Source of the DNA: Halomicrobium mukohataei DSM 12286
GTDB taxonomy: Archaea > Halobacteriota > Halobacteria > Halobacteriales > Haloarculaceae
Length of the DNA stretch: 32,000 bases
Direction: 5' to 3'
Assembly (NCBI RefSeq): GCF_000023965.1
Contig: NC_013202.1
Coordinates: 480,001-512,000 of the forward strand
The translations under genes and the position numbers were made by a program. Below the pieces are notes generated by a model, which saw only the letters and a program-made list of their open reading frames with translations, made no database searches and had not been told where the DNA came from. Shown in pieces: positions 1,884 to 28,059 of the stretch. Numbering within the stretch: position 1 is the stretch's first letter; the number at the start of each line of letters is the position of its first letter.

Positions 1884-3070
1884 CAGTCCTGGCTCGCACC
1901 CATCCGGAGGTCCACGTCGCCGGTGCCGAGCTGGACCGGCTTCCCGACGATCACGTTCTCGATGACGCCTTCGAGCACGTCGACCTCGCCGTGGATCGCG
2001 GCGTCTAACAGGTGATTGACCGTCACCTCGTAGGCCGCACGCGCGAGGACGCTCTCTTTGTTGCCCGAGATGCCGTGGCGACCGATCGACTCGATCTCGC
2101 CGCGGTTGGTCATGATGTCGGCGACCAGCATCAGGTGCCGGATGTTCACGTCGTCGAGCCCCTGCTCTTCGAGCGTGTGCATCGTCTCGTTGATCAGCGT
2201 CTCGCGGGCCGCCTCGATGCCGAGGTTGCGGTAGATCTCGTGGATGTTGTTACACGTCGTCCGGGAGGCGTCGATCCCCTCGATCCCGAGCACGTCGCCG
2301 AAGGCCGACCCCTCGGTGTAGAGGACGAACTCCTCGCCCTCGTCGGTCTCTTCTTTCCGGATGACCACGCGGGAGATGTCCTCGATCCCCTTGAAGACGA
2401 CCTCGCGAAGCTCCTCGACGAGCTGGAGGAGGTCGCGATACGACGGCTCTTCGGGGCCGAACTCGATCATCGTGCCGGCCTGGCGGGTCTGGACGGCCAG
2501 CTTCGACTCGATGGTCTCGGCGATCTCCTCGGCCACGTCCTCGACCTGGTCGACGGTGGGCCACCGCTCCATCAGCGTCTCCTCGTTGAGGTCGATCTGG
2601 ACGAGCATGTCCGCGACGTTGGTCGAGATGTCACCCAGCGCGAGGATGCGCGTGGCCTCGATCTTCCAGACGACCTCGTGGGCCTTCTCCCGATCGGTCG
2701 CGTACTCGTCTTCGAGATGGACCGTCATCATCGGCGTGTCGGGCGTTTTCCGGGCGTCGACCAGCTCGATGAGCCGCGGCAGTCCCTGGGTCACGTCGAT
2801 CTCTGCGACCCCCGCGTAGTGGAACGTGTTCATCGTCATCTGGGTGCCGGGCTCGCCGATCGACTGCGCCGAGACGGTCCCGACCGGGTCCAGCGGATCG
2901 ACGCGGGTCTCCTGGTAGCGCGACTGGACGGCCTTGGCGATCTGGTCCGCCTCCTCGACGGTCACGTCGCGCTCTTCGATCGTACTGTACACGTCGTCTT
3001 TGAGCCGTCGCGGGAGGTCCGTATCCTCCACGATCGCTTCGATGTCGTCGGTTACGTTTGCTCGTGTCAT
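1883..3070 (-). CDS. rpoA2: DNA-directed RNA polymerase subunit A''
   Basis: 395 aa; ..[24 protein letters not shown].. and the C-terminal ..[16 protein letters not shown].. are hallmark Rpo1C sequences. Confidence 0.97.
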
Positions 3071-5988
3071 CAGTCGTCACCCTCCGCCATCCACCAGTCG
3101 TCGGTGTGTTCCGACAGATTGGTCGGCTCGGTGCGTTCACCGAGGAACTCGCTTTTGATGCTCTCGGACTCGAACTCGGCGTCGAGAACGCTGTCCGCGA
3201 TCTCCTCGACGTCGACCGGCGTCTCCTCGTTCGAGGAGACCTGTACCGGCGAGGTGCCGTCTTCGCCGAACTCGAACTGGACGATGTTGTCCGAGGTGTC
3301 CCGGACGGTGCCGTCGTACTGGGCCTCCAGTTCCGAGAGCGCGTTGATCAGACGGCGCTGGAGGTAACCGGACTTGGAGGTCCGGACCGCCGTGTCGACC
3401 AGCCCCTCGCGGCCACCCATCGCGTGGAAGAAGAACTCCTTGGGGTTGAGTCCGGAGCGGTACGACGCCTCCACGAAGCCGTGGGCGTCCGAGGAGAGGT
3501 CGTTCTGCTTGAAGTGTGACAGGGTGCGGTCCTCGTAGCCGCGGTTGATCCGCTCGCCACGGACCGCCTGCTGGCCGACACAGCCGGCCATCTGGGTCAG
3601 GTTGAGCATCGACCCACGCGCGCCGGACTCGGCCATCACGACAGCCGGGTTGTCGTCGTCGAAGTGGTCTCCGGCGATGTCACCGGCGGAGTCACGGGCC
3701 TTGCCGAGCGTCTGCATGATCTTCATTTCGAGGGTCTCGTCGACCGTCCGACCGGGCAGCGACTCCAGTTCGCCCCGATCGTAGGTCTCGATGAGTTCCT
3801 CGACGCGGTCGTAGGCGTTGTCGATGGCCTCGGTGATCTGGGCCTCCGCGGCCTCGGGAACGGACTCGTCGTCGATCCCGATCGAGAACCCGAAGTGCAT
3901 GATCGAACGCATCGCCAGCGCGGCGATCTCGTTGATGAAGATGCGCGCTCGGGTGTTGGAGTACTCCTTGGTGATAGTGTCGACGATCTCGCCGCCGAAC
4001 CCACCGACCGCGCTGTCGTCGATGGTCCCCTCGACGAGCTGCCCGTCCTCGATGATCACGTCGTCGCCGGCCTCGCTGGTGAACGTCAGATCGAGGTCGT
4101 CGGGCAACAGCTCCGAGAAGATGTCGCGACCCGTCCAGTAGGGCGTGCCGTCGTCGTCGACGCCGGATTCGGGCGGGAGCTCGTCGATCCGGGTCGCACG
4201 CAGCAGGTCCAGTGCCTGGGTCTCGTTGAACTCCGGATTAGTGTGAGTCAGCAGATAGGTCCCACTGATGTGGTCCTGAATCGCGCCGATGATGTTCTCA
4301 CCGAAGCGCGGGCTGAGGATCTGCTCCTGGACGCGCATCAGCACGCGAGCCTCGGCACGGGCCTCCTCGTTCTGGAGGGCGTGCATGTTCATCTCGTCGC
4401 CGTCGAAGTCCGCGTTGTACGGCGGACAGACCGTCGTGTTGAGCCGGAACGTCTTGTAGGGCATCACCACGACCTCGTGGGCCATGATGGACATCCGGTG
4501 CAGCGACGGCTGGCGGTTGAAGATGATGATGTCGCCGTCGATCATGTGACGGGACACTTCCCAGCCCGGTTCGACCTTCTCGGCCAACTCCTCGCAGTTC
4601 TTCTCGGTGACCTTCAGTCGGCGACCGTCGGGCCGCTTGACGTAGTTGGCACCGGGGTGGGCCTCGGGCCCGTTGGCGACGTAGCGACGAGCGTTGTCGA
4701 GGTTGCGCTCGTTGACGTTCATCGTCTGGGTCATCTCCTTGGCCACGCGGTCGGGGACGCCGACCTCGTTGAGCGACAGGGTCGGGTCCGGGGAGATGAC
4801 CGTCCGGGCCGAGAAGTTCACGCGCTTCCCGGACAGCGAGCCACGGAAGCGACCTTCCTTGCCTTTCAGGCGCTGAGAGAGGGTCTTCAGCGGCCGGCCA
4901 GAGCGGTGTCGGGCCGGCGGCGTGCCGCTGATCTCGTTGTCCATGAACGTGGTGACGTGGTACTGCAGCAGTTCCCAGAGGTCCTCGATGATCAGCTGGG
5001 GCGCGCCTGCCTCGCGGTTCTCCATGAACCGCTGGTTGATCCGGATGATGTCGACCAGCTTGTGGGTCAGGTCGTCCTCCGAGCGCTGGCCGTTGTCCAG
5101 CGTGATCGACGGTCGCGCGGTGACCGGCGGCACGGGCAGGACGGTGAGAATCATCCACTCGGGGCGAGAACGGGCGGGCTTCATGCCCAGCACCTCGACG
5201 TCCTCGTCCGGGATGTCCTCGAACCAGTCCCGGATGTCGCTGGGCATCAGCTTGTTCTCGTCTTCCTCGGTGAGGTCCACGTCCAGCGCCGACTCGATGG
5301 CCCGACGGTCGTCCTGTCGGGGTCGGAACTCTCCGGAGATGATCTCCTGGACGCGAGAGGGATCGATACCCGTCTCGTCGGCCAGTTCCGAGGGCGTGGT
5401 CCGTTCGCGGCCGGCCTCCTCGTCGGGCTCCATCGCGGCGACGATCCGCTGGGAGTACTCCGAGGAGAGCACGTCCTGGACCTCGTAGTAGGTCGTCGGC
5501 TTCTCGTGTTTGATGTCGTACTGGGGCTCGCCACAGAACGGACAGCGGTCCTTCTTGCGGGCCTGCCGGATCGCGGCCTTGGTCACGTCGTTGACGTCCT
5601 TGCCCAGCTCCTCGGATCGTTCGAGGCGGTCCTCGAACTCCTCGCGTTCGCGTTCGTCGAGACAGAGCCGCGAGCACTCCCGACAGGTCCCGCGCAGCAG
5701 GCGTCGGATGAGCTTGTTGAACCCGACGTGGATGACGGGCGCTGCGAGTTCGATGTGGCCGAAGTGGCCGTTACACGACCCACTGTGCTTGCCACAGGTC
5801 TTACACTCCAGGCCGGGGTCGATCACGCCCAGACGCGGGTCCATCAGTCCCATGTCGATCGGGAACCCGTCGTCGTCGTAGGTGTCGGCCGTGATGACCT
5901 TCGTGGCGCTCATGTCGCGGTACTCCTCGGGATCCATCAGCCCGAAGCTAATGGAACTGATCGATTTGGGTGTCTGTTGTGCACTCAT
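3070..5988 (-). CDS. rpoA1: DNA-directed RNA polymerase subunit A'
   Basis: 972 aa with the Zn-binding [15 protein letters not shown] motif, the catalytic [10 protein letters not shown] motif and the RQPSLHRMS motif. Confidence 0.98.
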
Positions 5989-9935: not shown

Positions 9936-10008
9936 GCCCGGATGGTGTAGTGGCCCATCATACGACCCTGTCACGGTCGTGACGCGGGTTCAAATCCCGC
10001 TCCGGGCG
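9936..10008 (+). tRNA. tRNA-Asp (anticodon GUC), no encoded CCA
   Basis: I folded it by hand: 7-bp acceptor stem GCCCGGA/TCCGGGC, anticodon stem CGACC/GGTCG with loop CTGTCAC, and T arm GCGGG-TTCAAAT-CCCGC. Length 73 nt. Confidence 0.9.
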
Positions 10009-10051
10009 CTTCTGCTGTGAACAGACTGCCGAACAACTGAAAATACGTCGT

Positions 10052-10124
10052 GCCCGGATGGTGTAGTGGCCCATCATACGACCCTGTCACGGTCGTGACG
10101 CGGGTTCAAATCCCGCTCCGGGCG
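10052..10124 (+). tRNA. tRNA-Asp (anticodon GUC), second identical copy
   Basis: All 73 nt are identical to 9936-10008. The 6 nt before each copy (CGTCGT) are also identical. The spacer is 43 nt. Confidence 0.9.
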
Positions 10125-10365
10125 TTCTACGACAGTTCACTCCGCCAGCGAAGCCTCTCGTCGTCGCTCTTCTAGCGAAGTCCCTGCCGTCGAGCAACAT
10201 CCAGCTATCGCTCGCGAAGTCGGTGGCGTGGAGGGGAAAAGTCCCCTCACCCTGTCATAGGTCCGTCCCACCTCGGGAGGCGGACACGGCTGTGATCGGA
10301 CGACGGCGATAAATGCTTTGCGGGGGTGGGGAACTGTTTAGTGTCGGCGCACGAATCTCGCCCGT

Positions 10366-11019
10366 ATGGAGGACGTGGACCGCGAAGCGATGCCGCGGGC
10401 GATCGTCGAGGAGTTTCTGGCACGCGAACGCGGGACGCGCGCGCTGCTGGACGACCTCGAGAAGTTGGCGATCGAGGGCCGGACCGAGGAGTTGCACGAT
10501 CGGATCGAGAACCTCGCCGAGAACGACGAGGCGGTCTTCTACACCGTCGCGTTCAGCCTCGCGGACTCGGTGCAGTTCTTCGGCGACGTGGAGGCCCAGC
10601 TCGACGTGACCGCGGCCGATCGGCTCCGGGATCTGGCCGAGACGTACCCGACGCTGGCAGAACCGTTCGCCGTCGTTCGAACGGAGCTGTCCGAAGACCG
10701 CAAGAACCCGGTGACGAACGTCAGCTACAGCGTCGCCTACCACCGTGGGATCGAGTCGCCGATCGTCACCTACCGCCCGCTGTCGGGCGGGCGAGAACTC
10801 TACGAGTCGCGAGCGACGCCGTCGGAAGTGCTGGGCACGGCCGCAGACCTCGTGGCGGCGACGACCGACGCGCTCGACGTGGCCCTGGAGAGCGATCACT
10901 CGGTCAACACGGAGGAGCTGAGCGAGCTGATCGACCGCCGAGAGCGACTGGAGACGGAGCTGTCGCGCCTGCGTGACGATCTCGACGAGCTCCGGCGGAC
11001 GCCGATCGACGGCGAGTAG
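10366..11019 (+). CDS. hypothetical acidic cytoplasmic protein with a C-terminal coiled-coil-like tail
   Basis: 217-aa ORF with a haloarchaeal acidic composition and high GC3. The competing 392-aa antisense ORF is Ser/Arg-rich junk. I recognised no family. Confidence 0.65.
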   Translation: MEDVDREAMPRAIVEEFLARERGTRALLDDLEKLAIEGRTEELHDRIENLAENDEAVFYTVAFSLADSVQFFGDVEAQLDVTAADRLRDLAETYPTLAEPFAVVRTELSEDRKNPVTNVSYSVAYHRGIESPIVTYRPLSGGRELYESRATPSEVLGTAADLVAATTDALDVALESDHSVNTEELSELIDRRERLETELSRLRDDLDELRRTPIDGE

Positions 11020-12830: not shown

Positions 12831-14012
12831 ATGAACCTCGCCGCAATCGGGTTCGGTAACGCGGGTGGCAAGATCGTCGACAGATTCCTCGCCTTCGAGG
12901 AGCGGTCTGGGCGGTCGCTCACGACAGAGGCGCTCGCGATCAACTCCGCGGAGATCGATCTGGCGAAGTTGGAGGTGCTCCCGCCGGACCGTCGGCTCAT
13001 CATCGGCCAGACCGACGAGCGGGTGAAGGGACGGGGCGTCGGTGCCGATCCGGAGCTGGGCTCGGAGATCGCTCGCCAGGACCTCACCGAGATCGAGCGC
13101 CAGCTAGACACCGTTCCGATCCACGAGACCGACGGCTTTCTCGTGGTCGCCGGGCTCGGCGGGGGAACCGGGAGCGGTGGCGCGCCGGAGCTGGCCGAGC
13201 GGCTCGGTCGGATCTACGAGGAACCGATCTACGGGCTGGGGGTGTTGCCAAGCGCCGACGAGGGCGGTCGTCCCTCGCTCAACGCCGCCCGCTCGCTCCA
13301 GGCCTTCGCCGACGCGACGGACAACCTCATGGTGTTCGACAACGACGCCTGGCGACAGACCCAGGGGTCGGTCGCGGCAGGGTACGACCGGACCAACCGA
13401 GAGATCGCGCGGCGGTTCGTCACGCTCCTGGCAGCCGGCGAACTCGACGGCTCGCAGGTGTCCGAGTCCGCGATGGACGCCAGCGACATCCGCCGGACGC
13501 TGGCGACCGGAGGACTCAGCACGATCGCGTTCAGCCAGGCAGACGTCGAGGCCGAGACGAAATCGAAGCAAGGACTGTTGGGCCGACTGCGATCCAACGG
13601 CGAGAGCCACACCGACGAGGGGGACCTGGCGAAGAAGATCCACGGGCTCGTCCGGAAGGCCGTCCAGTCTCGGCTCACCTGTCCGGCAGACGTCGCCTCC
13701 GCCGAGCGCGCCCTGGTCGTCGTCTCCGGCCCGCCACGCGAGGTCTCACAGAAGGGGCTCCAGCGGGCCCGCCAGTGGCTCGAACGCGAGACCGACAGCG
13801 TCGAGGTGCTGGCCGGCGACGACCCCCGGACCGACGCCGACGCGCTCTCGGTGGCCGTGTTGCTGTCGAACGTCACCGAGGTGCCACGCGTCGACGAGCT
13901 ACAGGAGCGGGCCGTCACGGCACAGGAAAACAGCCGGCAGCAAGCCGCCGAGCGCAGAGCGGAGATCGACGAGTTGCTCACCGACGAGGAGAACGAGCTC
14001 GACCCCCTCTAG
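12831..14012 (+). CDS. cetZ: CetZ-type tubulin/FtsZ-superfamily GTPase
   Basis: MNLAAIGFGNAGGKIVDRF.., the tubulin signature GLGGGTGSGGAP, and ..NLMVFDNDAW.. closely recall Haloferax CetZ1 (from memory). Length is 393 aa from ATG 12831. The upstream 28 codons of the ORF cover the TATA box. Confidence 0.88.
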   Translation: MNLAAIGFGNAGGKIVDRFLAFEERSGRSLTTEALAINSAEIDLAKLEVLPPDRRLIIGQTDERVKGRGVGADPELGSEIARQDLTEIERQLDTVPIHETDGFLVVAGLGGGTGSGGAPELAERLGRIYEEPIYGLGVLPSADEGGRPSLNAARSLQAFADATDNLMVFDNDAWRQTQGSVAAGYDRTNREIARRFVTLLAAGELDGSQVSESAMDASDIRRTLATGGLSTIAFSQADVEAETKSKQGLLGRLRSNGESHTDEGDLAKKIHGLVRKAVQSRLTCPADVASAERALVVVSGPPREVSQKGLQRARQWLERETDSVEVLAGDDPRTDADALSVAVLLSNVTEVPRVDELQERAVTAQENSRQQAAERRAEIDELLTDEENELDPL

Positions 14013-16682: not shown

Positions 16683-16818
16683 AGACGAGCGTACTCGGGC
16701 CGAACGTAAAGGGGCGTCGTCCCGGCCGTCTGGCCGCCTGTGACTGCCGGCCGGGGACGCACAAAACGAGATCGAACCGTACAGAAGGGCCTTACAAACG
16801 GCGACCGACGACGGACGT

Positions 16819-17994
16819 ATGGCACCGATACGCCGCCGCCGAGCCCTCCAGCTGGCGGGCGGAAGCCTCAGCGCGCTCGTCGCCGGATGCGTCGGCGGAT
16901 CACCGTCCGCCGGTACGGACGAGCAGACCGACACACCGACCGACGAACCGACGGAGACGACGACCGACGGACGAACGGAGACGCCCACGTCCGCGACCGA
17001 AGTGACCGGGAGCGAGCAGGTCCGGTATCCGTCGGGCCCGTCAGAGCCCGACTGGGCGGGAGCGGACGCCGTCGGGCACGTCGCGCTGGCGGCCTCCCGA
17101 GAGCGGGCGCGGGCGCTGCTCGCGCCGTTCGAGCTCCCCGAAGCACGACGCGAGCCGGTGGTCGAGTTGCTCCGGGAGACCGACTTCGAGCGATCGCTGC
17201 TGGCGCTGGTCGAGACCGTCGGCCCGAACGGCTGCTACCGGACCGTCGAGGTCTCGAACCTCGCGCTGAGCGGCGACCGACTCGTCGGCGACGCGAGCGC
17301 GGTAGACGAGAGCGACGGCGAAACGGCCTGCACCGAGGCGCTGACTTACCCCGCGACGCTCGTGCGGGTCACCTTCGACGGCAGACCGCCGGAACGGGCG
17401 ACGTTCACGATCACGGACGGCTGGGGCGAGAGTGCCGACGTGACGGGGACAGTCGAGGATCGAATCGGCCCGGACCCCGACGATCTGGCCGGTCACGTCC
17501 GCCCGGACGACGACCCCGTCGTCCGAGAGCCGCTGTCCTGTGACCGCGAGGGGTTCCAGCGCCACGGCAGCTGGGTCGACGATCCACCGTGGGGGCTGGC
17601 CACCGACGACGACGGAGCGCCGACGTTCGCGCTCCGGGTCGACCGACTCGAAGCCGGCGTCGGTGAGACGGTCACGGTCACGATGACCAACGTCGGCGAC
17701 GGCGTCCTGAGCACCGGCAACCGCCACAAGTACGGCCTCCAGACCCAGACAGAATCGGGGTGGGAAGACGTTCGCGGCGCGACCGACGGCGACCCCTTGT
17801 CCTACACCGACGAGGCGATCGGCCACGCCCCCGGCGACGGCTTCGAGTGGACGCTGGAACTCACCGAGGAGGGTCTCGTCGCGGACCACGTCCACGCCGA
17901 CCGGCTGGTCGTCTGTCCCGACCTCGAACCCGGTCGCTACCGCTTCGTCTTCTGGGAGCCCGCCGTGGCCGTGGCGTTCGACCTCGTGGAGTAG
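16819..17994 (+). CDS. Tat-signal lipoprotein, function unknown
   Basis: MAPIRRRRALQLAGGSLSALVAGC has a twin-arginine motif plus the lipobox LVAGC. A Thr/Glu/Asp/Pro-rich linker follows, then beta-rich domains. Confidence 0.78.
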   Translation: MAPIRRRRALQLAGGSLSALVAGCVGGSPSAGTDEQTDTPTDEPTETTTDGRTETPTSATEVTGSEQVRYPSGPSEPDWAGADAVGHVALAASRERARALLAPFELPEARREPVVELLRETDFERSLLALVETVGPNGCYRTVEVSNLALSGDRLVGDASAVDESDGETACTEALTYPATLVRVTFDGRPPERATFTITDGWGESADVTGTVEDRIGPDPDDLAGHVRPDDDPVVREPLSCDREGFQRHGSWVDDPPWGLATDDDGAPTFALRVDRLEAGVGETVTVTMTNVGDGVLSTGNRHKYGLQTQTESGWEDVRGATDGDPLSYTDEAIGHAPGDGFEWTLELTEEGLVADHVHADRLVVCPDLEPGRYRFVFWEPAVAVAFDLVE

Positions 17995-19136: not shown

Positions 19137-20219
19137 ATGCTCCGCGTGGGCATCAACGGCTTTGGCACCATCGGGAAACGGGTCGCCGACGCCGTTCGTG
19201 CACAACCAGATATGACGGTCGCCGGAGTCGCCAAACGAACGCCCGACTACGAGGCCGAGATCGCTCGTGATCGGGGCTACTCGCTTTTTGCCGCCGCAGA
19301 GACGACGCCGTTTACTGCGGCCGGAATCGACGTTGCAGGCCAGGTCCGCCAGCTCGTGGCTGCGAGCGACGTCGTCGTCGACGCGACGCCGGCCGGCGTC
19401 GGCGAGCGAAACCGCGCGCTGTACGAGGAGTTAGAGACGCCAGCGATCTACCAGGGCGGCGAAGACGCGAGCGTCGCGCCGGTCAGCTTCAACGCCAGGG
19501 CAAACTACGACGAGGCGGTCGGTGCCGACGCCGTCCGCGTCGTCTCGTGTAACACGACCGGGCTGTCACGTGTCCTGGCACCGCTGGAGGAACGCTACGG
19601 GATCGAGAAAGTCCGCGCGACGCTGGTCCGACGCGGCGGAGACCCCTCACAGACCGGACGCGGACCGATCAACGACACGCTGCCGGACCCCGTCTCGATC
19701 CCGTCCCACCACGCGCCGGACGTCAAGACGGTCTTCCCGGAGCTGTCGATCGACACCATGGGCATGAAGGTGCCCGCGACGCTGATGCACACCCACGCGA
19801 TCAACCTCACGCTCCGGGCGACGCCCACCGCCGAGGACGTCCGCGATCTGCTGACCGCCGAGGGGCGACTGCTGGTGATCCCGGAGCGGCTGGGCATCGA
19901 CGGCGCGGGCAAGCTCAAAGAGTACACCCGTGACGCGGGCCGACCCCGCGGCGACGTGTGGGAGAACTGCATCTGGGCCGAGTCCCTGACCGTCGAACCC
20001 CTGTCGGACGGCCGCGCGGACTGTTACCTGTTCCAGGCAATCCACCAGGAGGCCGACGTGGTCCCCGAAAACGTCGACGCCATCCGGGCGATCGCCGGCC
20101 TCGCCGACGGTCCCGAGAGCGTCGAGCGCACCAACGAGGCCCTGGGGATCGGCTGCGGGCTCGCGGGGATAGAGCCCGACACGACCGCGCCGGCCCGCGA
20201 CGCTGCGAGCGACGACTGA
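19137..20219 (+). CDS. gap: type II (archaeal) phosphorylating glyceraldehyde-3-phosphate dehydrogenase
   Basis: [20 protein letters not shown].. , the catalytic VSCNTTGL, and ..IPSHHAPDV.. . Confidence 0.95.
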
Positions 20220-20285
20220 TACTGCCGGCAGTCACTTCGAGACTCGCCACTGGGGTTGCGAGATCGTTCGCAAACAGCCGACAGT
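20220..20285. repeat. 66-nt imperfect palindromic element (copy A) filling the convergent gap/phosphoesterase spacer
   Basis: TACTGCCGGCAGTCACT..TCGAGA..CTCGC-N10-GCGAG..TTGCGA-N6-TCGCAA..ACAGCCGACAGT. Both arms and the inner hairpin are homologous to 27150-27225. Confidence 0.8.
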
Positions 20286-20289
20286 ACGC

Positions 20290-20778
20290 TCAGAGCCGGT
20301 GGAACTCGATCTCGCCCGACTCGGTGTCGAGGACGGCGACGTGAAGCGGTTCTGGTGCGGCCTCGATCGGGATGCCACCGGGGTTGATCCGGACGGTGCC
20401 ACCGTGTTCTTCGAGCACGCGCTCGTGGGTGTGCCCGTGGAGGACGTAGTCGTAGTTGCCACACCCCACCAGCGCGTCGACGATCGCGGGGCTGGTGCCG
20501 TGGTAGACGGCCACCTCGACCCCGTCCAGAGTCAGCTCACCCATCTCACCGAGGTAGGTGCCGAACTCGTCGATCTGGGCGGCGAGTGCCCACTCGCCGT
20601 CGTTGTTCCCCCGGACCGCGTAGAAGTCGAACGCTCGCTCGAAGGGGGCAGCCGAGAACGGGGCGACGAAGTCACCGCAGTGGACGACGGCGTCGACGCC
20701 GACGGCGTCGAACTGCTCGATCGCTGCCGCGACGAGATCCGTGTCGTCGTGCGTGTCCGAGACGATCCCAACGTGCAT
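20290..20778 (-). CDS. MJ0936/YfcE-family metallophosphoesterase
   Basis: MHVGIVSDTHD.. , ..HCGDF.. , ..GNND.. and ..HGHTH.. are the calcineurin-like motifs. Start at ATG 20778 with AATAT about 27 nt upstream. Confidence 0.87.
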   Translation of the reverse strand: MHVGIVSDTHDDTDLVAAAIEQFDAVGVDAVVHCGDFVAPFSAAPFERAFDFYAVRGNNDGEWALAAQIDEFGTYLGEMGELTLDGVEVAVYHGTSPAIVDALVGCGNYDYVLHGHTHERVLEEHGGTVRINPGGIPIEAAPEPLHVAVLDTESGEIEFHRL

Positions 20779-20895
20779 ACAGACAGGCGACGCCGGACCC
20801 CCATATTCGTACCGGCTACAGAACCGGGCCATAGAACCGACCGATCGAACAGCTAACTCTATTCCGAGCTCATTGTTTACTTTCTTTTGTACAAG

Positions 20896-20906
20896 AAATT
20901 TAATAG
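20896..20906 (+). promoter_or_regulatory. orphan TATA-like box AAATTTAATAG beside the palindrome TTGTACAA
   Basis: It lies in the most AT-rich patch of this spacer (20865-20915). It is not needed by the phosphoesterase gene, which has its own box. An ATG at 20927 lies 26 nt downstream. Confidence 0.3.
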
Positions 20907-21191
20907 TCGGCGACGTATTTCCGGGTATGAGACGCCCTTCGACCGGCCGTGACAGGACCGACGGTCTCGACGCAGCGTCAGACACTACCGCCGGCGACGT
21001 GCCGCAGAGAGAGGACGGCGACTGGGCCGCCCGTCACGGCCGCACGCGTCGCACCTGAGCGGTCCAGCGCTGTTGGCACGAACCAGTCCACCCACCACTC
21101 ACCCCCCACCATTCTCTCTTTCAGTTCGCGAGCGATCGGACAGTGAGAATGTCCCCAAAGACGCGCCGCAGACGACCGTTCACGAGAAGGA

Positions 21192-22367
21192 TCACCGCGT
21201 GACGACCCGAGCGAGCGCCTCGGGATCGTCGACGACCGACAGCACCTTCGTATCGTCGTCCCGGACGAGACGCACCGTCCCAAAGTCGTTCGAGAAGAAC
21301 GTACTCGCGATTCCGGACCCGACCCGGACGTCTGCGATTTCGTGACGGGCGACGCTCCATTGCGGCGCGTCCAGTCTGCGGTCGTACGCGACAACCACGT
21401 CGCCGTAGACGCGATACTCGACCGCCCCGTACGCGAGACGCGCGACGGGAATCTCCAGGACCGCGCGGCCCGCGACGAGCGCGACGACGGTCGAGACGGC
21501 GGCGACGAGACCGAACCAGAGGCCGACGCCGACAGAGACGAGCGCGACGAGGAACCCGTACGGCGGGAGCAGCGCTAGGAGCACCCCGAGTCCGAGCGCG
21601 TGCAGGACGACGCCGCGATCGTCGGTCCCCACCACCGTGATCGGCTCACCGTCGGGGACCGTGATTGGGTCGTCCGCCTCGACCTCCGGCTGCGCACCGT
21701 CGTCGGTCGTGGACGTCACGTCGAGGACGTCTGCGACGAGCTTCGCCGCGACCACGACCGCGAGCGTCGCCGTGAGTCCGACGCCCGCCGAGTCGGCGCC
21801 GGCACCGGCGATCGGGAGCAGGAACCCCGCGATGACGACGGCCATCCACCGGCGCCTCGAGAACGTCGACAGCGCGGAGTGGTGCTCGTACCGCTTCGCA
21901 CGGACGAATTCGGACAGCGTCCCCGCGTGTCGGACGACGACGATCACCGCGCCGACAACGACGCCGGGGAGCACGAGTCCTGCGAGCGAGCCAGACGATC
22001 TCGCGTACCCCCACACCAGTATCGCGACGACCCCGAGTCCGAACAGGACCCAGCCGGCGTTCAAGGCGAACGGGAGGTTCCGGGGATAGATCGGCGGCAA
22101 CCAGTCCACGAGGGTCACGCTGCCGCGTTTCTCACGGAGGCGCTCCAGTGGCACCTGGATGCCGTAGAAGTCGTCGTCGACGGGCCGCGTCGCGAACAGT
22201 GCCTCGACTGACGAACGGGTGACGTACGCGACGGCCTCTATCCAGTAGAGCACGAGCACCGGGAGCAGTTCCCAGTCGAACGCGAAGACGCCGACGAGCG
22301 GCACGGCGTTCACCAAGAGAGCCAGTGCGACGGTCGAACGCCTGTGCGCCGGATTATCCGCCACCAT
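21192..22367 (-). CDS. multi-pass membrane protein: N-terminal DUF6498-like TM domain fused to a C-terminal 2-TM + bacterial-PH (YdbS/YdbT-like) module
   Basis: The N-terminus ..ALLVNAVPLVGVFAFDWELLPVLVLYWIEAV.. resembles DUF6498 (from memory). The C-terminus has two TM helices and then ..YRVYGDVVVAYDRRL...WSVARHEIADVRV.....STFFSNDFGTVRLV.. , a bPH_2-like pattern. Confidence 0.78.
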   Translation of the reverse strand: MVADNPAHRRSTVALALLVNAVPLVGVFAFDWELLPVLVLYWIEAVAYVTRSSVEALFATRPVDDDFYGIQVPLERLREKRGSVTLVDWLPPIYPRNLPFALNAGWVLFGLGVVAILVWGYARSSGSLAGLVLPGVVVGAVIVVVRHAGTLSEFVRAKRYEHHSALSTFSRRRWMAVVIAGFLLPIAGAGADSAGVGLTATLAVVVAAKLVADVLDVTSTTDDGAQPEVEADDPITVPDGEPITVVGTDDRGVVLHALGLGVLLALLPPYGFLVALVSVGVGLWFGLVAAVSTVVALVAGRAVLEIPVARLAYGAVEYRVYGDVVVAYDRRLDAPQWSVARHEIADVRVGSGIASTFFSNDFGTVRLVRDDDTKVLSVVDDPEALARVVTR

Positions 22368-22390
22368 GCGATAATATTCGTTTATTCAAT

Positions 22391-22398
22391 ATAATAAA
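22391..22398 (-). promoter_or_regulatory. TATA box TTTATTAT for the membrane-protein gene
   Basis: Centred about 27 nt upstream of ATG 22367, within the AT-rich stretch 22368-22402. Confidence 0.45.
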
Positions 22399-22538
22399 CT
22401 TACCGAGACAAGACTGCATCGGGCGCCGGACGTGACGGCTTGCCGGACGGCGAATCCGGTGCTGGCCCTGACGAACCGGCGGGACAGCGAAGCGGGAGTC
22501 GCCACGGTGGCGGCTACTCGCCCACAGCGTCGGAGGTG

Positions 22539-24548
22539 TCAGCAGAATCCTGCCTGTGTCGGGTAGGTGTCCGAGCTACAGATGTCCTTTGCGTCCGGTA
22601 GCGCGGAGATGGTGAGCGAACAGATCGCGCCACCCAGGACCGCACACGGCACCGTCCCGAGGCCGAGCGTCGTCAGCGAGAACGCGCCACAGAACGCGGC
22701 GACGCCGTACCCGCAGAGCCCGACGTCCAGCGATAGTCGGATGAACGCGACACAGGCGCCACAGTCGTAGTTCTCGTCGCCGATAGCCTCGAACACGCCG
22801 CTCCCGACGAGAGAGATCATCGACGAGTACCCGGTGATCCTGAGCTTCCACAGGGCCTTGATTTTGAAGTCGTCGATGAACTTGGTCGCGAGCGACTGGA
22901 AGGAGTTGATCGTGTTCGCGACGATCTTGCCACCCGTCACCGCGATCTCGGACGAGGACACGTCGGCGTACTCGATGGCTTCCGCCAGATAGTCGGCACT
23001 AACGTCCTGGATGCCGTCAGAGACGTCCTTCAGACCGTCGTAGATATCACCGATCCAGTCGCCCCAGGGGATGGTGGGGATCCAGTCGCCTTGCGTCTCG
23101 GGTTGGGTCGTCTCGGGCGCGTCGAACTCGTACGTCTCCGTCGAGAGGCCGGCGGCAGCCGTCGAGAGAGAGCCGACCTCAAGCGTGTCGTGACGGAACT
23201 GTTCGATGTTGCCGGCGTCGTTGCGCCACTGGTAGGTGTTCTTGCCGGCGACGACGTCGTCGGTGTCGTGGCGCTTCGTGACGCTGACCGTGCCCTCGTC
23301 ACCCGTTTCGAGGTCGGTGAGTTTGAACGTCACCGAATCGACCGGGTCGGTCGCCGTGTCGGAGGTGATCGTGTAGAGGCCGTCGGCGTCGTGTCGGATT
23401 CGTCCCTCCACCGCCGACGCGAGCTGGTCGTAGGCATCGAGACGCTCGAATTTGGCGGCCATCTGGAGTCTCGCCGAGGACTGCGCGCTCTCGTAGGCCA
23501 TGTAGTCGAACGACACGGTCATCCGCGCGATGCCGACCGACGTGACGTCGCCGAAGTACTGAATCCGTTCGGTCTCGCCGGCAGCGACGGTGACCGTCGG
23601 GTTCTTGTGGACTTCTTCCTCGTAGATGAACGCCTCCGTCGACTCGGTGCTGAACTCGACCGAGCGGTTCTCGGGGGCCGTACAGACCACGCGCTTGGAC
23701 TCGGGGACGATTTCGACGGTCGCGCCGCTCTCGTGTTCGATACGCTCGACGCGCCCGTCGTAGCGCGCGGTCGTCCCGCGCTGGGTCGAGTAGGCACTGA
23801 CGCTGCCGTCTTCGACGCTCGCGTGGGCGTGGTCGCTGTCCGCGTCGCCCGACACCTCGACGGTGACGCCCCGTCCATCTCCGGAGATCTCCATCTCGCC
23901 GGGGAGCGAGGCCGGCAGTGCGTCGTCGGGTTCGAGTTTCTGGTCGTCCCTGCGGACCCAGACCTGGTCGGAGGCGTCGAAGTACGTGAGTTCCCCCGCG
24001 TACGAGATGTCGGTTCGTCCATTGATGGTCCCGCGGACGGTGCGAGCGTTCGGCTTCTCGAGTTCGTCGTCGTCGGCTTCGACACGCCCGCTGGCGGAGA
24101 TGTCGACGTCGACGTGGCCCGGCGCGATGACGGTGAGTGTCTGCTGGGGGAACGCGTCGGGGTCGACGGAGTCGCCGTCGACGACGACCTCCGCCCCGCC
24201 GGAGACGTCGAGTTCGGTGAACTCACCGGAGAAATCGTATGAGTGTGTCTCCCCCTCGATCGTGGCGGTGGCCGCGCCAGCGTCGAGGGATTCGCTCGGA
24301 GCGTCGGTCGCGGAGACGAGTCCGGTGACGGAGAACGTGTAACTGGCCTCACCGCTCGCACGGATGGAGACGCTTCGCGTGACCTCACTGGCAGCGAGCG
24401 AGGGTGTGCCGCGTTCGGTGATGTCGTTGAGACTCGCGTCGGACGCGGCACCAGCCGTGGAAGCACCGATTGCGGTCGCACCGGCGACAGCAATCCCTCG
24501 GAGGACTTCGCGTCGAGACTTGTTCTGATTGTTGTCGTCTGACGACAT
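22539..24548 (-). CDS. Tat-secreted 669-aa protein with a halocin C8-like Cys-rich hydrophobic C-terminal domain (candidate pro-halocin)
   Basis: The twin-arginine signal is NKSRREVLRGIAVAGATAIGASTAGAAS. The middle is acidic and beta-rich. The last ~75 aa (..YDCGACVAFIRLSLDVGLCGYGVAAFCGAFSLTTLGLGTVPCAVLGGAICSLTISALPDAKDICSSDTYPTQAGFC) hold 8 Cys. The ORF call is solid. The function is inferred. Confidence 0.85.
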   Translation of the reverse strand: MSSDDNNQNKSRREVLRGIAVAGATAIGASTAGAASDASLNDITERGTPSLAASEVTRSVSIRASGEASYTFSVTGLVSATDAPSESLDAGAATATIEGETHSYDFSGEFTELDVSGGAEVVVDGDSVDPDAFPQQTLTVIAPGHVDVDISASGRVEADDDELEKPNARTVRGTINGRTDISYAGELTYFDASDQVWVRRDDQKLEPDDALPASLPGEMEISGDGRGVTVEVSGDADSDHAHASVEDGSVSAYSTQRGTTARYDGRVERIEHESGATVEIVPESKRVVCTAPENRSVEFSTESTEAFIYEEEVHKNPTVTVAAGETERIQYFGDVTSVGIARMTVSFDYMAYESAQSSARLQMAAKFERLDAYDQLASAVEGRIRHDADGLYTITSDTATDPVDSVTFKLTDLETGDEGTVSVTKRHDTDDVVAGKNTYQWRNDAGNIEQFRHDTLEVGSLSTAAAGLSTETYEFDAPETTQPETQGDWIPTIPWGDWIGDIYDGLKDVSDGIQDVSADYLAEAIEYADVSSSEIAVTGGKIVANTINSFQSLATKFIDDFKIKALWKLRITGYSSMISLVGSGVFEAIGDENYDCGACVAFIRLSLDVGLCGYGVAAFCGAFSLTTLGLGTVPCAVLGGAICSLTISALPDAKDICSSDTYPTQAGFC

Positions 24549-24570
24549 ACAATACCAACTTTTTCCACTG

Positions 24571-24580
24571 GATAATATAA
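24571..24580 (-). promoter_or_regulatory. TATA box TTATATTATC for the halocin-like gene
   Basis: Centred 28 nt upstream of ATG 24548 and bracketed by AATACCAA (24551-24558) and TTGGTATT (24582-24589). Confidence 0.5.
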
Positions 24581-24676
24581 TTTGGTATTAATATTCCAAT
24601 AAGAATAATTAATCGGGCAGGACGCCAGCGGGTGACGCCCCTCCGAGGACCGGTTGTCAGCACCGCCTCCGAACGG

Positions 24677-25717
24677 CTACGGGCCCTGGTCGAGGAGTGA
24701 CTCGACGAGGGAGCGCTGACTCGCGACGAAGCGCTCGGCTCGCGGTCCCGACCAGTACGGCGCCCACGAGAGCGACGCGACGGTCGACAGCAGGAGGTAC
24801 AGACGGCGTCGCCGCCGGAAGGCCTCGTCGGTGGCCAGCGAGCGTCGATCGCGATACCCTTCGTAGAGCGACGCTCTCACACGCTGTCGTTTGTCACTCC
24901 CCAGCGGTGCCCATCCCGAGCAGTACTGTTCGGTCACGGCGAGTTCGAACTCGTCGTGGACGCTCCGTGCACCGCCCCAGTCAAGTACCGCGCGGACCCG
25001 ACCCGCGCCCTCGTCGACCACGACGTTCCGCGGCTGGTAGTCGTAATGAGCGAGGACCGGATCAACGTCCGGAAGCTCCGGGATCTCACTGTCGAGGACT
25101 GACTGGACCGTCGACGCCAGCCCGTCCAGTCGCGTGTCCCCCTCGATTTCCGCGGCGAGTTCCCAGAGCCACGACTGCCACGAGCTAGCCGGGTCAGTCA
25201 CGGTGAGCGTCCCGTCGTCGACGGTGATCGGACCGAACCCGGACACCGGTCCGCAGTCGTGCAGTGCCGCCAGGTGGCGCCCGGCCTGCCGGACGATGTC
25301 GTCGAGTATCCCATCGGGCCACCCGGTATCCCCGTTCTCCCGAGCGCTCGCCTGCGTCGGGGATCCACCCTCGACGTGCTCCATCACGAACGACGGAGCC
25401 GGCAGGTCGTCGGGTTGCAGGTGACTGCCATACACGTCGGGGACCGGGATCGAGGTGTGGTCGGCGACGTACCGGAGCAGTGCGGGCTCCCGACGGAGTC
25501 CCGTCGCGTCGCCCTCCACAGCGGCCTTGAACACGACGGTCCGCCGGTCACCCTCCTGGTCTCGGACGTCCACACGATACGTCGTCGCCGACCCGGTGCG
25601 CAACGGCTCCGCGTCCAGCACCTCACACTCGATGCCGGCGGCGGCGACCATCAGCGCAATCATCTGTTCGGAGAACGGGTCCGGGTCCCGTTCCTGGAGC
25701 GACGACGGTTCTCTCAT
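24677..25717 (-). CDS. APH/choline-kinase-family phosphotransferase
   Basis: ..HYDYQPRNVVVD.. (the HxDxxxxN catalytic loop) and ..AVLDWGGARSVHDEFELA.. (the D-W metal-binding motif). Start placed at ATG 25717 (MREPSSLQ..) because the upstream 33 codons run through AT-rich promoter-like sequence with a T5 box at -26 to -30. Confidence 0.78.
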   Translation of the reverse strand: MREPSSLQERDPDPFSEQMIALMVAAAGIECEVLDAEPLRTGSATTYRVDVRDQEGDRRTVVFKAAVEGDATGLRREPALLRYVADHTSIPVPDVYGSHLQPDDLPAPSFVMEHVEGGSPTQASARENGDTGWPDGILDDIVRQAGRHLAALHDCGPVSGFGPITVDDGTLTVTDPASSWQSWLWELAAEIEGDTRLDGLASTVQSVLDSEIPELPDVDPVLAHYDYQPRNVVVDEGAGRVRAVLDWGGARSVHDEFELAVTEQYCSGWAPLGSDKRQRVRASLYEGYRDRRSLATDEAFRRRRRLYLLLSTVASLSWAPYWSGPRAERFVASQRSLVESLLDQGP

Positions 25718-25882
25718 GGGCAAATAGTGTAAAACTACAGTCAAAAAGATGTCGGATAGATCTCCTGGCGACGCTGGGCTCTGGTCTGACATCATCGCTG
25801 CCACGTGACGCGACACCGATAGTCGCGCGCGTTATCGAGAACAGCGATGATCGAAAGCGACGCGATCCCCAGACCGAGCGCC

Positions 25883-27100
25883 TCAGTCCTCGCGCTGGAG
25901 GACCTCGACGCCGATCAGCGATGCCCCGGTGAGCGCGCGGATGTACGCCCCGCCCGCGATCGAGACGTGGCCGAAGTCGTCCTCGCTCATGCCGTACATC
26001 TCGATCGCCCGAGAGGTGTCGCCGCCACCGACCACCGAGAAGCAGTCGGTCTCGGCGATCGCTTCCAGCACCGACACGGTCCCGACGGAGAAGCGCTCTT
26101 CCTCGAAGACACCCAGCGCACCCTTCACGAAGACGGCCTCCGAGTCCCGGATCACGTCGGCGTAGCCCTCGGCGGTGTCGCTACCCACGTCCATGAACGA
26201 GACCGTCTTCTCGTCGATGTCGGCCACGTTCGTCTCGGCGCGGTCGCCGTCCTCGTCGGCGTAGGCCATGTCCGTCGCCAGCGTGATCTTCTCGCGGTTC
26301 TCTTCGAGGATCCGCTCGATCAGCTCGTGGTTGTCCGCCCACTGGGAGTCGTAGAGATCGAGGTCGGGATCGAGGTCGAAGCCCACGGGCGCGCCGTCGG
26401 CCCGCAAGAACAGTTCGCCCGCGATCCCGCCCAGCAGGAAGTCGTCGACCGTGTCGCCGAGGTGGTCCATCACGTCGATCACGTCGGTCGCCTTCGTCCC
26501 GCCGACGGCCATCGTCACCTGTCCGTCGAACTCCTTCTGTGCGATGGCGGTGTTTGCCTCGTACTCGGTCTCCATGACGCGGCCGGCGTACGCCGGGAGC
26601 ACGAGCGGGAAGCCCACCAGCGAGGCGTGCGAGCGGTGGGCCGCCGAGTAGGCGTCGTTGACGTATGCGTCGAACTCCGGGGCGAGCGTCCGGACGAACT
26701 CCGTCTCGGCCTTGACTTCGGGGTCTTCCTCGGGCAGTTCCTCGTCACACATCCGGGTGTTCTCCAGCAGGAGCACGTCGCCGCCGCCGAGGTCGTCGAT
26801 AGCGGCCAGCGCGTCCTCGCCGAAGGTGTCGGCGACGAAGTCCACGTCAGTGCCGATGTGTCCGCTCAGGATGTCGGCGTGCTGTTCGAGCGAGACGAAC
26901 GTGTCTCGACCGGGGCGGCCCTGGTGGGCCATCAGCACGGTCTCGAAGCCACGGTCGGCGAGTTCCCGAACCGTCTTCGCGTGGCGTTCGAACCGGCGGT
27001 TGTCCTGCACCGCGCCGTCCTCGACCGGCGAGTTCAGGTCGAGGCGGACGAGGACGCGCTGTCCGTCTGCGAGGTCGTCGAGCGTCTGGAACGCTGCCAT
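25883..27100 (-). CDS. pgk: phosphoglycerate kinase
   Basis: MAAFQTLDDLADGQRVLVRLDLNSPVEDG.. , ..VLMAHQGRPG.. and ..GGGDT.. are archaeal PGK signatures. Start at ATG 27100. Confidence 0.95.
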   Translation of the reverse strand: MAAFQTLDDLADGQRVLVRLDLNSPVEDGAVQDNRRFERHAKTVRELADRGFETVLMAHQGRPGRDTFVSLEQHADILSGHIGTDVDFVADTFGEDALAAIDDLGGGDVLLLENTRMCDEELPEEDPEVKAETEFVRTLAPEFDAYVNDAYSAAHRSHASLVGFPLVLPAYAGRVMETEYEANTAIAQKEFDGQVTMAVGGTKATDVIDVMDHLGDTVDDFLLGGIAGELFLRADGAPVGFDLDPDLDLYDSQWADNHELIERILEENREKITLATDMAYADEDGDRAETNVADIDEKTVSFMDVGSDTAEGYADVIRDSEAVFVKGALGVFEEERFSVGTVSVLEAIAETDCFSVVGGGDTSRAIEMYGMSEDDFGHVSIAGGAYIRALTGASLIGVEVLQRED

Positions 27101-27149
27101 ACGCGAGGAGAGAGGCGTCCGGGAGAAAAAACCGCCCGATCCGTCACAC

Positions 27150-27225
27150 ACTGTCGGCTGTCAGTCTGTGACGAATTTCGCGACCCCGTATCGCGAACCT
27201 CTCGAAACAGTGACAGCCGGCAGTA
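27150..27225. repeat. 76-nt imperfect palindromic element (copy B) directly after the stop codon of the 27226-28059 gene
   Basis: Minus-strand reading: TACTGCCGGCTGTCACTGTTTCGAGAGG-TTCGCGA-TACGGGG-TCGCGAA-..-TGACAGCCGACAGT. The outer stem is 13 bp and the inner hairpin 7 bp. Confidence 0.8.
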
Positions 27226-28059
27226 TCAGCGTGTGAGCTTCGCCTCGTGGTTCTCGTCGAGTTCGCGCAGTCGGTCGCCACACGAGCCACACTCCGCGGC
27301 GATCACCTCGTGGAGCCCACAGCAGGACTCGACGGTGTCTGCCGTCGTCGTGATCTGGCCGCCACACGCGGGACAGTCGTCCCCCAGCGTCCGTAGTTCC
27401 TCGCGGATGGTCGCGCGCTGTTCGACCGGCACGTCGGTCCAGCGGTCGGTCCACGCTGCCATCGCCGCGTCGGTCGCCACGTCCGCGAGCAGCGCGGCCT
27501 CGCTTGGCCACTTGCGAATCCGGTTGTCGATCTCGATGGCCGGGTAGTCGCGGTCCGTCGTCGCGACCGAATCGGGAGCGGCGTCGAACAGGGTCGCCAG
27601 CGTCGCCGGTTCCCGCAGCGAGTCGCGGTTGGCCTCGACGTGCTCGTCTCGCAGCGCCGCAAAGTCCTCGGTGAAGCGGTCGGTCCCGCCGTCACGAGCG
27701 ACGACGCCCTCGTCGGCGAGGAACCGTTCGGGGTCGACGGCGTTCTCGCGGTGCTGCTCGATCTTCTGGATCGTCTCCCACTCCTCGTCGTCCGCCTCGT
27801 GGTCGTCGAAGCGCGCGCGGATCGACTCGGGGAGGTACCGCTTGGTCAGCGTCGGGGTCCCGGGGACGAGATAGCCACGCAGGTAGATCGACACCAGCGA
27901 GAGGGCCAAGACCGCGACGCCGGCCAGCGGGACGACGACGCCGACGAGTGTGCTCGCCACGGCGGCGATGACGACGTTGACGGCGGTACAGGGGACACAG
28001 CGGTTCGGACCGGTGTACTCCGGCCGGCGGACGCGCTCGACCACGGAGAACTCTGTCAT
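27226..28059 (-). CDS. hypothetical membrane protein with a C-terminal Cys-rich Zn-ribbon-like motif
   Basis: Two N-terminal TM helices, an acidic middle, and a C-terminal ..CPACGG..SCCG..CGSCG.. . Confidence 0.72.
   Translation of the reverse strand: MTEFSVVERVRRPEYTGPNRCVPCTAVNVVIAAVASTLVGVVVPLAGVAVLALSLVSIYLRGYLVPGTPTLTKRYLPESIRARFDDHEADDEEWETIQKIEQHRENAVDPERFLADEGVVARDGGTDRFTEDFAALRDEHVEANRDSLREPATLATLFDAAPDSVATTDRDYPAIEIDNRIRKWPSEAALLADVATDAAMAAWTDRWTDVPVEQRATIREELRTLGDDCPACGGQITTTADTVESCCGLHEVIAAECGSCGDRLRELDENHEAKLTR

Follow-up and report, generated by a model that had tools for sequence, protein, structure and literature searches.

Why does one structured sequence begin, in nearly the same form, exactly at the stop codons of two unrelated genes of a haloarchaeal chromosome? 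The question is raised by a 32,000-nt stretch of Halomicrobium mukohataei DSM 12286 (contig NC_013202.1, positions 480,001 to 512,000; hereafter "the window"), in which one copy of the sequence (copy A) follows the gap gene for a type II GAPDH and a second (copy B) follows a gene for a DUF8054 protein. A preliminary description, made from the letters of the window, had left the choice between a dispersed element resembling a repetitive extragenic palindrome (REP) or a MITE (miniature inverted-repeat transposable element), and a dedicated module of messenger RNA 3' ends. We conclude that A and B are very probably old insertions, by now decayed in part, of a non-autonomous family of MITEs that measure about 78 bp and are widespread in Halobacteria, and that the shared stop codon is the target triplet that members of this family duplicate on insertion.

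Copies A and B and their family

The resemblance between A and B is real and goes well beyond chance. With A read on the plus and B on the minus strand, 58 of 79 aligned columns are identical (73%), against 48 of 78 in the opposite relative orientation. Both look-alike copies lie where they had been described, their first 20 nt including the TGA differ at a single position, and both finish with ACAGCCGACAGT; the start that they have in common after the TGA reads TACTGCCGGC(A/T)GTCAC. Copy A does occupy the entire spacer between the convergent gap and metallophosphoesterase genes, as had been claimed, and copy B lies between the DUF8054 stop and the start of pgk, the next gene on the same strand. 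A GAPDH identical to that of the window is encoded on CP045142.1 (GCA_009217585.1) and on contigs assembled from four sequencing runs, and the nearest named relatives of the protein are from Halomicrobium, in keeping with a segment of a Halomicrobium chromosome. The outer stem proposed in the preliminary description stands for A on the plus strand (10 of 12 pairs), but the G-U pair ascribed to B on the minus strand is a C-A in the gene-sense RNA; C-A is found on the gene-sense strand of both copies, and a G-U is present only on the opposite strand.

Searching the window with a 16-mer arm (at most 3 mismatches) gave five matches, four of them in the arms of A and B and one, with 3 mismatches, at position 16740; shuffled sequences yielded 0.54 matches on average, and none of 100 reached five. 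In the window, an nhmmer profile built from 75 unrelated metagenomic copies recovered only B (E 4.7e-14) and A (E 2.9e-6). Copy B folds much more stably than its shuffles (z -5.4), and the gene-sense strand of A folds no better than shuffles (z -0.9).

The form of the intact element was derived from copies in metagenomes. A two-arm pattern, in which the fifth arm base was left free, matched at least 120 stretches, all in hypersaline samples, and the metagenome statistics given below rest on the 111 distinct copies among the matches listed. The modal core length is exactly 76 nt, found in 83 of the 123 cores among the matches listed. The consensus of 75 full-length copies, TACTGCCGGCTGTAAGTTCGTGAAGATATTCGCCACCCCGGGGTGGCGAATTTCTTCAGTTTGTTACAGCCGGCAGTA, describes an element of about 78 bp that runs from TACTG to CAGTA and has no coding capacity; its terminal inverted repeats (TIRs) of 14-16 bp (TACTGYCGGCTGTAA ... 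TTACAGCCGRCAGTA) enclose a central palindrome of about 20 bp (TCGCCACCCCGGGGTGGCGA), from which they are separated by short asymmetric linkers.

In a scan of one genome per species, the two-arm pattern found true copies only in Haloarculaceae and other Halobacteriales, namely in H. katesii (the ortholog of copy B), in Haloarculaceae H-GB1-1 (a tandem pair of copies, within a divergent promoter region), in a Halovenus metagenome-assembled genome and in Halobacteriales QS_6_64_34. Bacterial genomes accounted for 49 of the 55 matches; these 49 were apparently chance matches of a GC-rich pattern (one of them, L051, was inspected), and the matches in locus L014 and at 3033-3085 of locus L020 were chance-like and set aside as well. 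L020 also contains one element nested within another. BLAST of PLSDB placed further copies on plasmids of Haloarcula rara, H. marina, H. hispanica and Haloarcula sp. CBA1115, of Halomicrobium urmianum, of Halomicrobium sp. LC1Hm (pLC1Hm-01, 15 places) and of H. mukohataei (7 places), and also of Haloplanus and Natribaculum. Copies beyond A and B, for which the preliminary description had proposed to search the whole genome, are present in several genera and at more than 100 loci of hypersaline metagenomes.

No family match was found in the phage collection. Two matches of a loose pattern in viral contigs were rejected as chance, lying in coding-like sequence and having neither TA ends nor a central palindrome, and a stricter pattern matched no viral contig. 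A literature search with the arm sequences returned only unrelated primer matches and no description of the family. In a large automated census, the archaeal genomes richest in MITEs include one from an unclassified member of the Haloarculaceae and one from Halovenus (PMC11602168), and because genomes of these two groups rank so high in it, the family has probably been collected there in bulk already.

A tandem arrangement was seen at locus L015, where two copies (5554-5695) meet at the common junction ...ACAGCCGAC TCAC TACTGCC... within a divergent promoter region. About 33 nt separate their outer end, CAGTATAAGG, from the ATG of the gene that follows, which might thereby receive a TATA-like sequence.

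Target-site duplication

The search pattern imposed nothing on the flanks of a match, and these turned out to be strongly constrained. T...A stands just outside the core in 100 of the 111 copies, and the 3-nt flanks are identical on both sides in 83 (TGA in 36, TCA in 36, TAA in 6 and TTA in 5), or in 79 of 107 after near-identical loci were collapsed. The flanks are direct rather than inverted, and the middle base of the triplet differs among copies yet matches on the two sides of each; the triplets therefore represent a true 3-bp TNA target-site duplication (TSD). A reading based on few copies, in which the element duplicates TA as IS630/Tc1-like elements do, was abandoned, as the large sample puts the direct repeat in the triplet outside the TA. 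The extended target is palindromic: 70% of copies have C at -1 and 55% have G at +1, so that C-TSA-G (S, G or C) is the preferred site. Among non-coding TSA sites, occupancy is about 14 times higher for those in the C-TSA-G context than for the others.

The element thus inserts at a TNA triplet (mostly TGA or TCA, preferably within C-TSA-G) and duplicates it; a DDE transposase of the IS5 (IS1031-group) or PIF/Harbinger type would mobilise it in trans by cut and paste. Any TNA is a stop codon on one strand or the other. Upon insertion into a stop codon, the element begins on the next base and the protein is left unaltered, because the gene-side copy of the duplication restores the stop. The earlier observation that the similarity starts at the stops of unrelated genes holds, and its cause lies at the level of DNA: the same sequence follows both genes from the TGA onward because the TGA is the duplicated target triplet.

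Insertion polymorphism between close relatives

Presence and absence of the element differ between strains that are otherwise very similar. In loci L190 and L191, whose GAPDH is 99% identical to that of the window, copy B is absent: its site reads CGC TAA TAG GGATC, where the window has CGC TGA[77 nt]TGT GAC GGATC. The net surplus in the window is 80 nt (77 + 3), and the downstream sequence GGATCGGGCGGTTTTTTCTCC is common to the alleles with and without the copy. The reverse situation occurs at 7757-7840 of L190 and L191, where an intact 78-nt element, with another TGA at its far end, comes directly after the TGA stop of a 391-aa gene; in the window the same gene (16819-17994) ends with TAG (17992-17994) and carries no element, which makes this an empty site. 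Copy A has an ortholog in L190 and L191 that is likewise degenerate, and is absent in H. urmianum (L192); copy B has an ortholog in H. katesii (L052).

The comparison of orthologous spacers that the preliminary description had suggested has thus found presence and absence for each of its two copies. Taken with the more than 100 loci, the TIRs and the 3-bp duplication, the polymorphism between close strains bears out its proposal of a dispersed MITE-like element. Because both the insertion of copy B and that after the 391-aa gene differ between strains with 99% identical GAPDH, the two are usable as strain-level markers in Halomicrobium. The features of both copies in the window are collected in Table 1.

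Table 1. Positions of copies A and B, their parts and their flanks in the window
Feature	Position	Strand	Basis or remark
GAPDH (type II, gap) gene	19137-20219	+	stop TGA 20217-20219
TGA, gap stop and target-site triplet to the left of copy A (context GAC-TGA, the preferred one)	20217..20219	+	TSD rule, target logo
Copy A, 67 nt long, degenerate and with a loss of about 11 nt relative to the 78-bp MITE family	20220..20286	+	profile match, alignment to B
Copy A, outer arms	20220-20235 and 20271-20286	+	10/12 paired in core
Copy A, remnant of central palindrome CTCGC-CACTGGGGTT-GCGAG	20243-20262	+
Copy A, right flank CGC, then TCA (20290-20292)	20287..20292	.	TCA is the stop of the convergent metallophosphoesterase gene (-)
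Copy B, 77-nt family member, terminal A now G	27149..27225	-	profile match, fold
Copy B, outer arms	27210-27225 and 27149-27164	-	13/14 complementary, one C-A on gene-sense strand
Copy B, central hairpin TTCGCGA-TACGGGG-TCGCGAA	27177-27197	-
TGA, stop of DUF8054 gene (27226-28059) and left TSD copy of copy B	27226..27228	-
TGT, decayed right TSD copy of copy B	27146..27148	-	orthologous H. katesii (L052) copy still TGA (...GACAGTG TGA GACGG)

Other differences from related strains lie close to the two copies. Between the phosphoesterase and pgk genes, the window has a strain-specific segment of about 5.1 kb with AT-rich borders (20782-25885), all of whose genes are on the minus strand; they encode a DUF6498 protein (21192-22367), an APH-type kinase (24677-25717) and, in an open reading frame (ORF) of 669 aa without a Pfam match (22539-24548, -), a further product. 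In its place L190, L191 and L188 show no more than some 110 nt or a small ORF. L188, a metagenomic relative with 85% identical GAPDH, has a gap spacer of 605 nt, compared with 70 nt in the window. Three tandem 64-nt units follow the gap stop there (10081-10280), each starting with TGAT, ending with GGGCGAY and repeating the last bases of the gene together with its stop, and three 45-nt tandem units are found at 10525-10640.

Excess of insertions at stop codons

For the baselines, ORFs of at least 80 codons with a signature in third-position GC content (GC3) were counted as gene-like, a rule that is crude but uniform. In 45 of the 111 metagenome copies (about 40%) the duplicated triplet is the stop codon of such an ORF, compared with 12% of the non-coding TNA sites in the same loci (p 2e-14), a baseline that could be off by up to about 2-fold given the crudeness of gene calls from ORF length and GC3. 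Within convergent spacers, 21 of 470 stops are occupied as opposed to 5 of 1097 other TNA sites, an odds ratio of about 10, and the odds ratio for tandem spacers is also about 10. Restricting the comparison to C-TSA-G sites gives an odds ratio of 4.4 (p 7e-4).

Annotated plasmids agree with these counts. As read from the annotation, a RefSeq stop codon coincides exactly with one end of 6-7 of the roughly 15 copies on pLC1Hm-01 (among them those at 12941, 70887, 150403, 129981, 159336 and 166625), and on Haloarcula hispanica pHH400 and on plasmids of H. mukohataei JP60 and H. urmianum a coding sequence ends on the first 3 nt of the match. The strong excess at stop codons is a notable property of this MITE. 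Insertion sites away from stops show a similar logo at -2, -1 and +1, which favours a sequence-based target preference that matches typical haloarchaeal gene ends (GAC-TGA-G). The excess may come from the choice of target or from the survival of harmless insertions.

Points against a simple MITE; maintenance of palindromy

Several observations weigh against the interpretation as an ordinary MITE moved by a TIR-binding transposase. Copy A has a TGA only next to the gene, and no intact duplication of it survives on the right. Where copy B or the L190 insertion is missing, the unoccupied allele has a different stop (TAA TAG and TAG, respectively) and is not the exact pre-insertion sequence. The stop-codon baseline depends on the crude gene calls mentioned above. 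About 1.2 Mb of fetched haloarchaeal DNA, among it a 224-kb plasmid with 15 copies, yielded no autonomous element whose termini match, and in the Haloquadratum census (Table S8 of PMC3119063) the canonical haloarchaeal insertion sequence (IS) types with a recorded duplication make 5-11 bp, none of them 3 bp.

A further point is the co-variation of the two halves of the element, which simple recognition of TIRs by a protein does not predict. In 58 aligned copies, the symmetric pairing of position i with position 79-i is kept in 79% of cells, and positions 1-15 are paired in nearly all copies. At 25 of 37 symmetric pairs both sides change, a score that none of 500 shuffles reached and to which no slid register came near. 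Arm position 6, which was free in the search, co-varies as C-G (28), U-A (22) and A-U (3). The stems that are supported in this way are an outer one (1-15) and an inner one (about 21-37), with an internal loop at 16-20.

Apparent sister families, TSA-flanked like the 78-bp family, differ from it in their arm sequences, which are TAGTGATTAGTGTAAC, TACTGGTGGCTGTAAC, TACTGTCGGACGG and TACGGACAGTTGTCGG. What they retain is the TA.TG.....TGTAAC frame, together with the size, the central palindrome and the TSA duplication. The common size and architecture were read at L131 (2236-2316 and 3829-3909), L037 (477-546) and L020 (about 4126-4202); further sites in L188 (4087, about 5509-5671 and about 7261) were recognised by arm and TSD matches only. 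In L131, the copy of the TAGTGATTAGTGTAAC family at 2236-2316 again adjoins a stop codon.

Since the halves co-vary and the sister families keep the architecture, palindromy itself is maintained; it may act in single-stranded DNA during transposition, in RNA or through symmetrising repair. A bolder extension would unite the 78-bp elements and their sisters in a superfamily of Halobacteria hairpin transposons whose propagation depends on the folded palindrome and not on arm sequence, and whose enzyme actively prefers stops (GAC-TGA-G) as sites where landing does no harm. We regard this extension as speculative and rather doubtful; if true, it would amount to a safe-harbour strategy that has not been described for prokaryotic MITEs.

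The mobilising enzyme

For the enzyme that would move the 78-bp MITE, an IS5/Harbinger-like DDE transposase is the best inference, with about an even chance of being correct, because the duplication is a 3-bp TNA and the flanks are C...G. A preference for TNA is a hallmark of the IS1031 subgroup of IS5 (PMC1676026).

The autonomous partner was sought by way of orphan arms, of arm pairs 0.2-4 kb apart and of generic pairs of TIR and TNA, which gave nothing or only matches that neighbouring MITEs account for. The genes between paired copies include no recurrent gene and share no similarity, and no ORF with the Y-2-R-3-E-6-K motif was found in the fetched loci. On pLC1Hm-01, the ORFs in unannotated gaps comprise a repeat array, an apparently non-coding stretch and one putative transposase fragment, and no partner. 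The unannotated stretch at 114.8-118.5 kb of this plasmid (L185) has repetitive six-frame translations with a recurring FQTDPCGIEA and looks like a CRISPR array.

Alternative explanations

The alternative that fares best keeps a mobile element and changes its enzyme. A structure-recognising enzyme, HUH/RAYT-like or another acting on hairpins of single-stranded DNA, would move the element, with the hairpin conserved for that purpose and TSA as the cleavage or target motif. Such an enzyme would account for a hairpin that co-varies across subfamilies, arms included, and for sister families that combine a common architecture with other arms; the absence of an autonomous IS from the fetched DNA also fits, as do the Haloquadratum small mobile repeats of similar size, the mobilisation of which is enigmatic (PMC3119063). 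It is at odds with the true direct duplication, which staggered DDE cuts typically leave and IS200/IS605 and REP/RAYT systems lack, and with the lack of any recurrent gene between paired copies. Moreover, the TA.TG and TGTAA termini are conserved in the sister families, as is expected of protein-recognised ends. On balance we consider this alternative unlikely. A REP/RAYT system does not agree with the TSD or with the mutual dissimilarity of the genes between paired copies.

A second alternative is a functional RNA module at messenger RNA 3' ends (a terminator, a stabilising hairpin or a source of small RNA from the 3' untranslated region) that selection keeps in place. That about 40% of copies directly follow stops, that copy B forms a very stable hairpin and that the hairpin co-varies would all suit such a module, but most copies lie away from stops, and several are in divergent promoters (L015, positions 148226 and 154994 of pLC1Hm-01 and 8 metagenome cases). 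Stop-adjoining copies show, in gene sense, a weak surplus of G-U over A-C (45 vs 29, p 0.08), and their orientation relative to the gene shows a weak trend (21 vs 10, p 0.07); neither count is significant, and they are not evidence for an RNA role. In the window itself, a C-A mismatch interrupts the sense-strand stem of both A and B, the fold of A is no better than that of its shuffles, and L190 and L191, which are without copy B, keep the same T6 run 17 nt past the stop. The TSD and the polymorphism among strains put the placement of copies at the level of DNA.

A scan for terminators and promoters with bacterial-type patterns found nothing at A or B. Rfam at the gathering threshold reported only two tRNAs in the window, and at E <= 1 nothing at A or B. 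With copies in promoter regions, no significant orientation bias and neither a terminator pattern nor an Rfam family, the dedicated 3'-end module of the preliminary description is not supported, and we consider a functional RNA of this kind highly unlikely. The window contains two tandem tRNA-Asp(GTC) genes, at 9936-10009 and 10051-10125, which are 42 nt apart. Downstream of copy B, a T6 run (27120-27125, -) is conserved in the strains that are without the element; because it lies 26-31 nt before the ATG of pgk, it may belong to that gene, as the TATA box of a leaderless transcript, and not serve the DUF8054 gene as a terminator.

Chance, a local duplication between the two spacers or a palindromic protein-binding (regulatory) site, to which the presence of two copies 7 kb apart in one 32-kb window and in a glycolysis-related neighbourhood (gap, pgk) might point, has next to no probability left, as both copies match the profile from unrelated metagenomic copies, the family occurs at more than 100 independent loci in several genera beside unrelated genes and on plasmids, the shuffle expectation is far lower, and the strain polymorphism is accompanied by a TSD.

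Implications

An apparently conserved 3'-end signal is thereby replaced with a simpler and testable proposition, namely a mobile element whose target duplication is itself a stop codon. For annotation, this means that hundreds of short, structured, stop-adjoining intergenic repeats in haloarchaea should be masked as MITEs; to call them terminators, C-terminal extensions or RNA genes would be a mistake. In transposon biology, the family is of use as a clean case of gene-sparing choice of insertion site, with about 10-fold odds at stops relative to the rest of the TNA sites in the spacers concerned.

Comparison with known elements

Among known elements, those of the IS5/IS1031 and PIF/Harbinger groups come closest in insertion behaviour. 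PIF/Harbinger elements are related eukaryotic transposons and the parents of Tourist MITEs; PIF inserts at CWC-TTA-GWG and IS5 at YTAR. A 3-bp TSD is described for PIF/Harbinger elements (PMC2213677). With IS5/IS1031 and PIF/Harbinger-Tourist MITEs the haloarchaeal family shares its short, non-coding form, its TIRs, the 3-bp TNA/TWA duplication and the C...G flanks. It differs from them in a middle base that is mostly G or C (TGA/TCA) and in a near-complete, co-varying hairpin.

Correia elements (CREE/NEMIS) of Neisseria, together with ERIC, RUP and BOX, are hairpin MITEs that are often co-transcribed with their neighbours. They resemble the present family in being abundant between genes, in their length of about 70-150 bp, in their hairpin form and in a target duplication that is short and fixed. 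Correia elements, however, duplicate TA, are longer, reside in a bacterial host and have documented promoter, terminator and RNase III effects, and to our knowledge no preference for stop codons has been reported for them.

REP sequences and the bacterial interspersed mosaic elements (BIME) built from them have no target duplication, carry a conserved 5' tetranucleotide and flank a RAYT gene. They have in common with the 78-bp family that they are short, dispersed, imperfect intergenic palindromes with co-varying stems; the differences are the TSD found here and the lack of a recurrent flanked gene among the loci seen.

Within the Archaea, the Sulfolobus MITE SM1 is a crenarchaeal element of about 79 bp that is mobilised in trans. 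Compared by description only, it is an archaeal MITE of nearly the same size as the 78-bp element, and is set apart by its crenarchaeal host, the IS630-type partner attributed to it and the TA target. Archaeal MITEs are listed in PMC10969869. The "small mobile repeats" of Haloquadratum walsbyi have inverted repeats unrelated to known transposons, with an enigmatic mobilisation (PMC3119063); in contrast to the present family, they are reported without target duplication, and the larger families of them target IS605-type elements. One of the repeats of that species, HqIRS41, measures 79-80 bp, has inverted terminal repeats (ITRs) with a score of 17/21 and shows strain-specific insertions of 80(+1) nt (PMC3119063, Tables S4 and S8). 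Judged by size, ITR score and insertion lengths only, HqIRS41 resembles the elements described here, with a host in Halobacteria, prominent ITRs and no known transposase partner, and it may be a relative of the 78-bp family.

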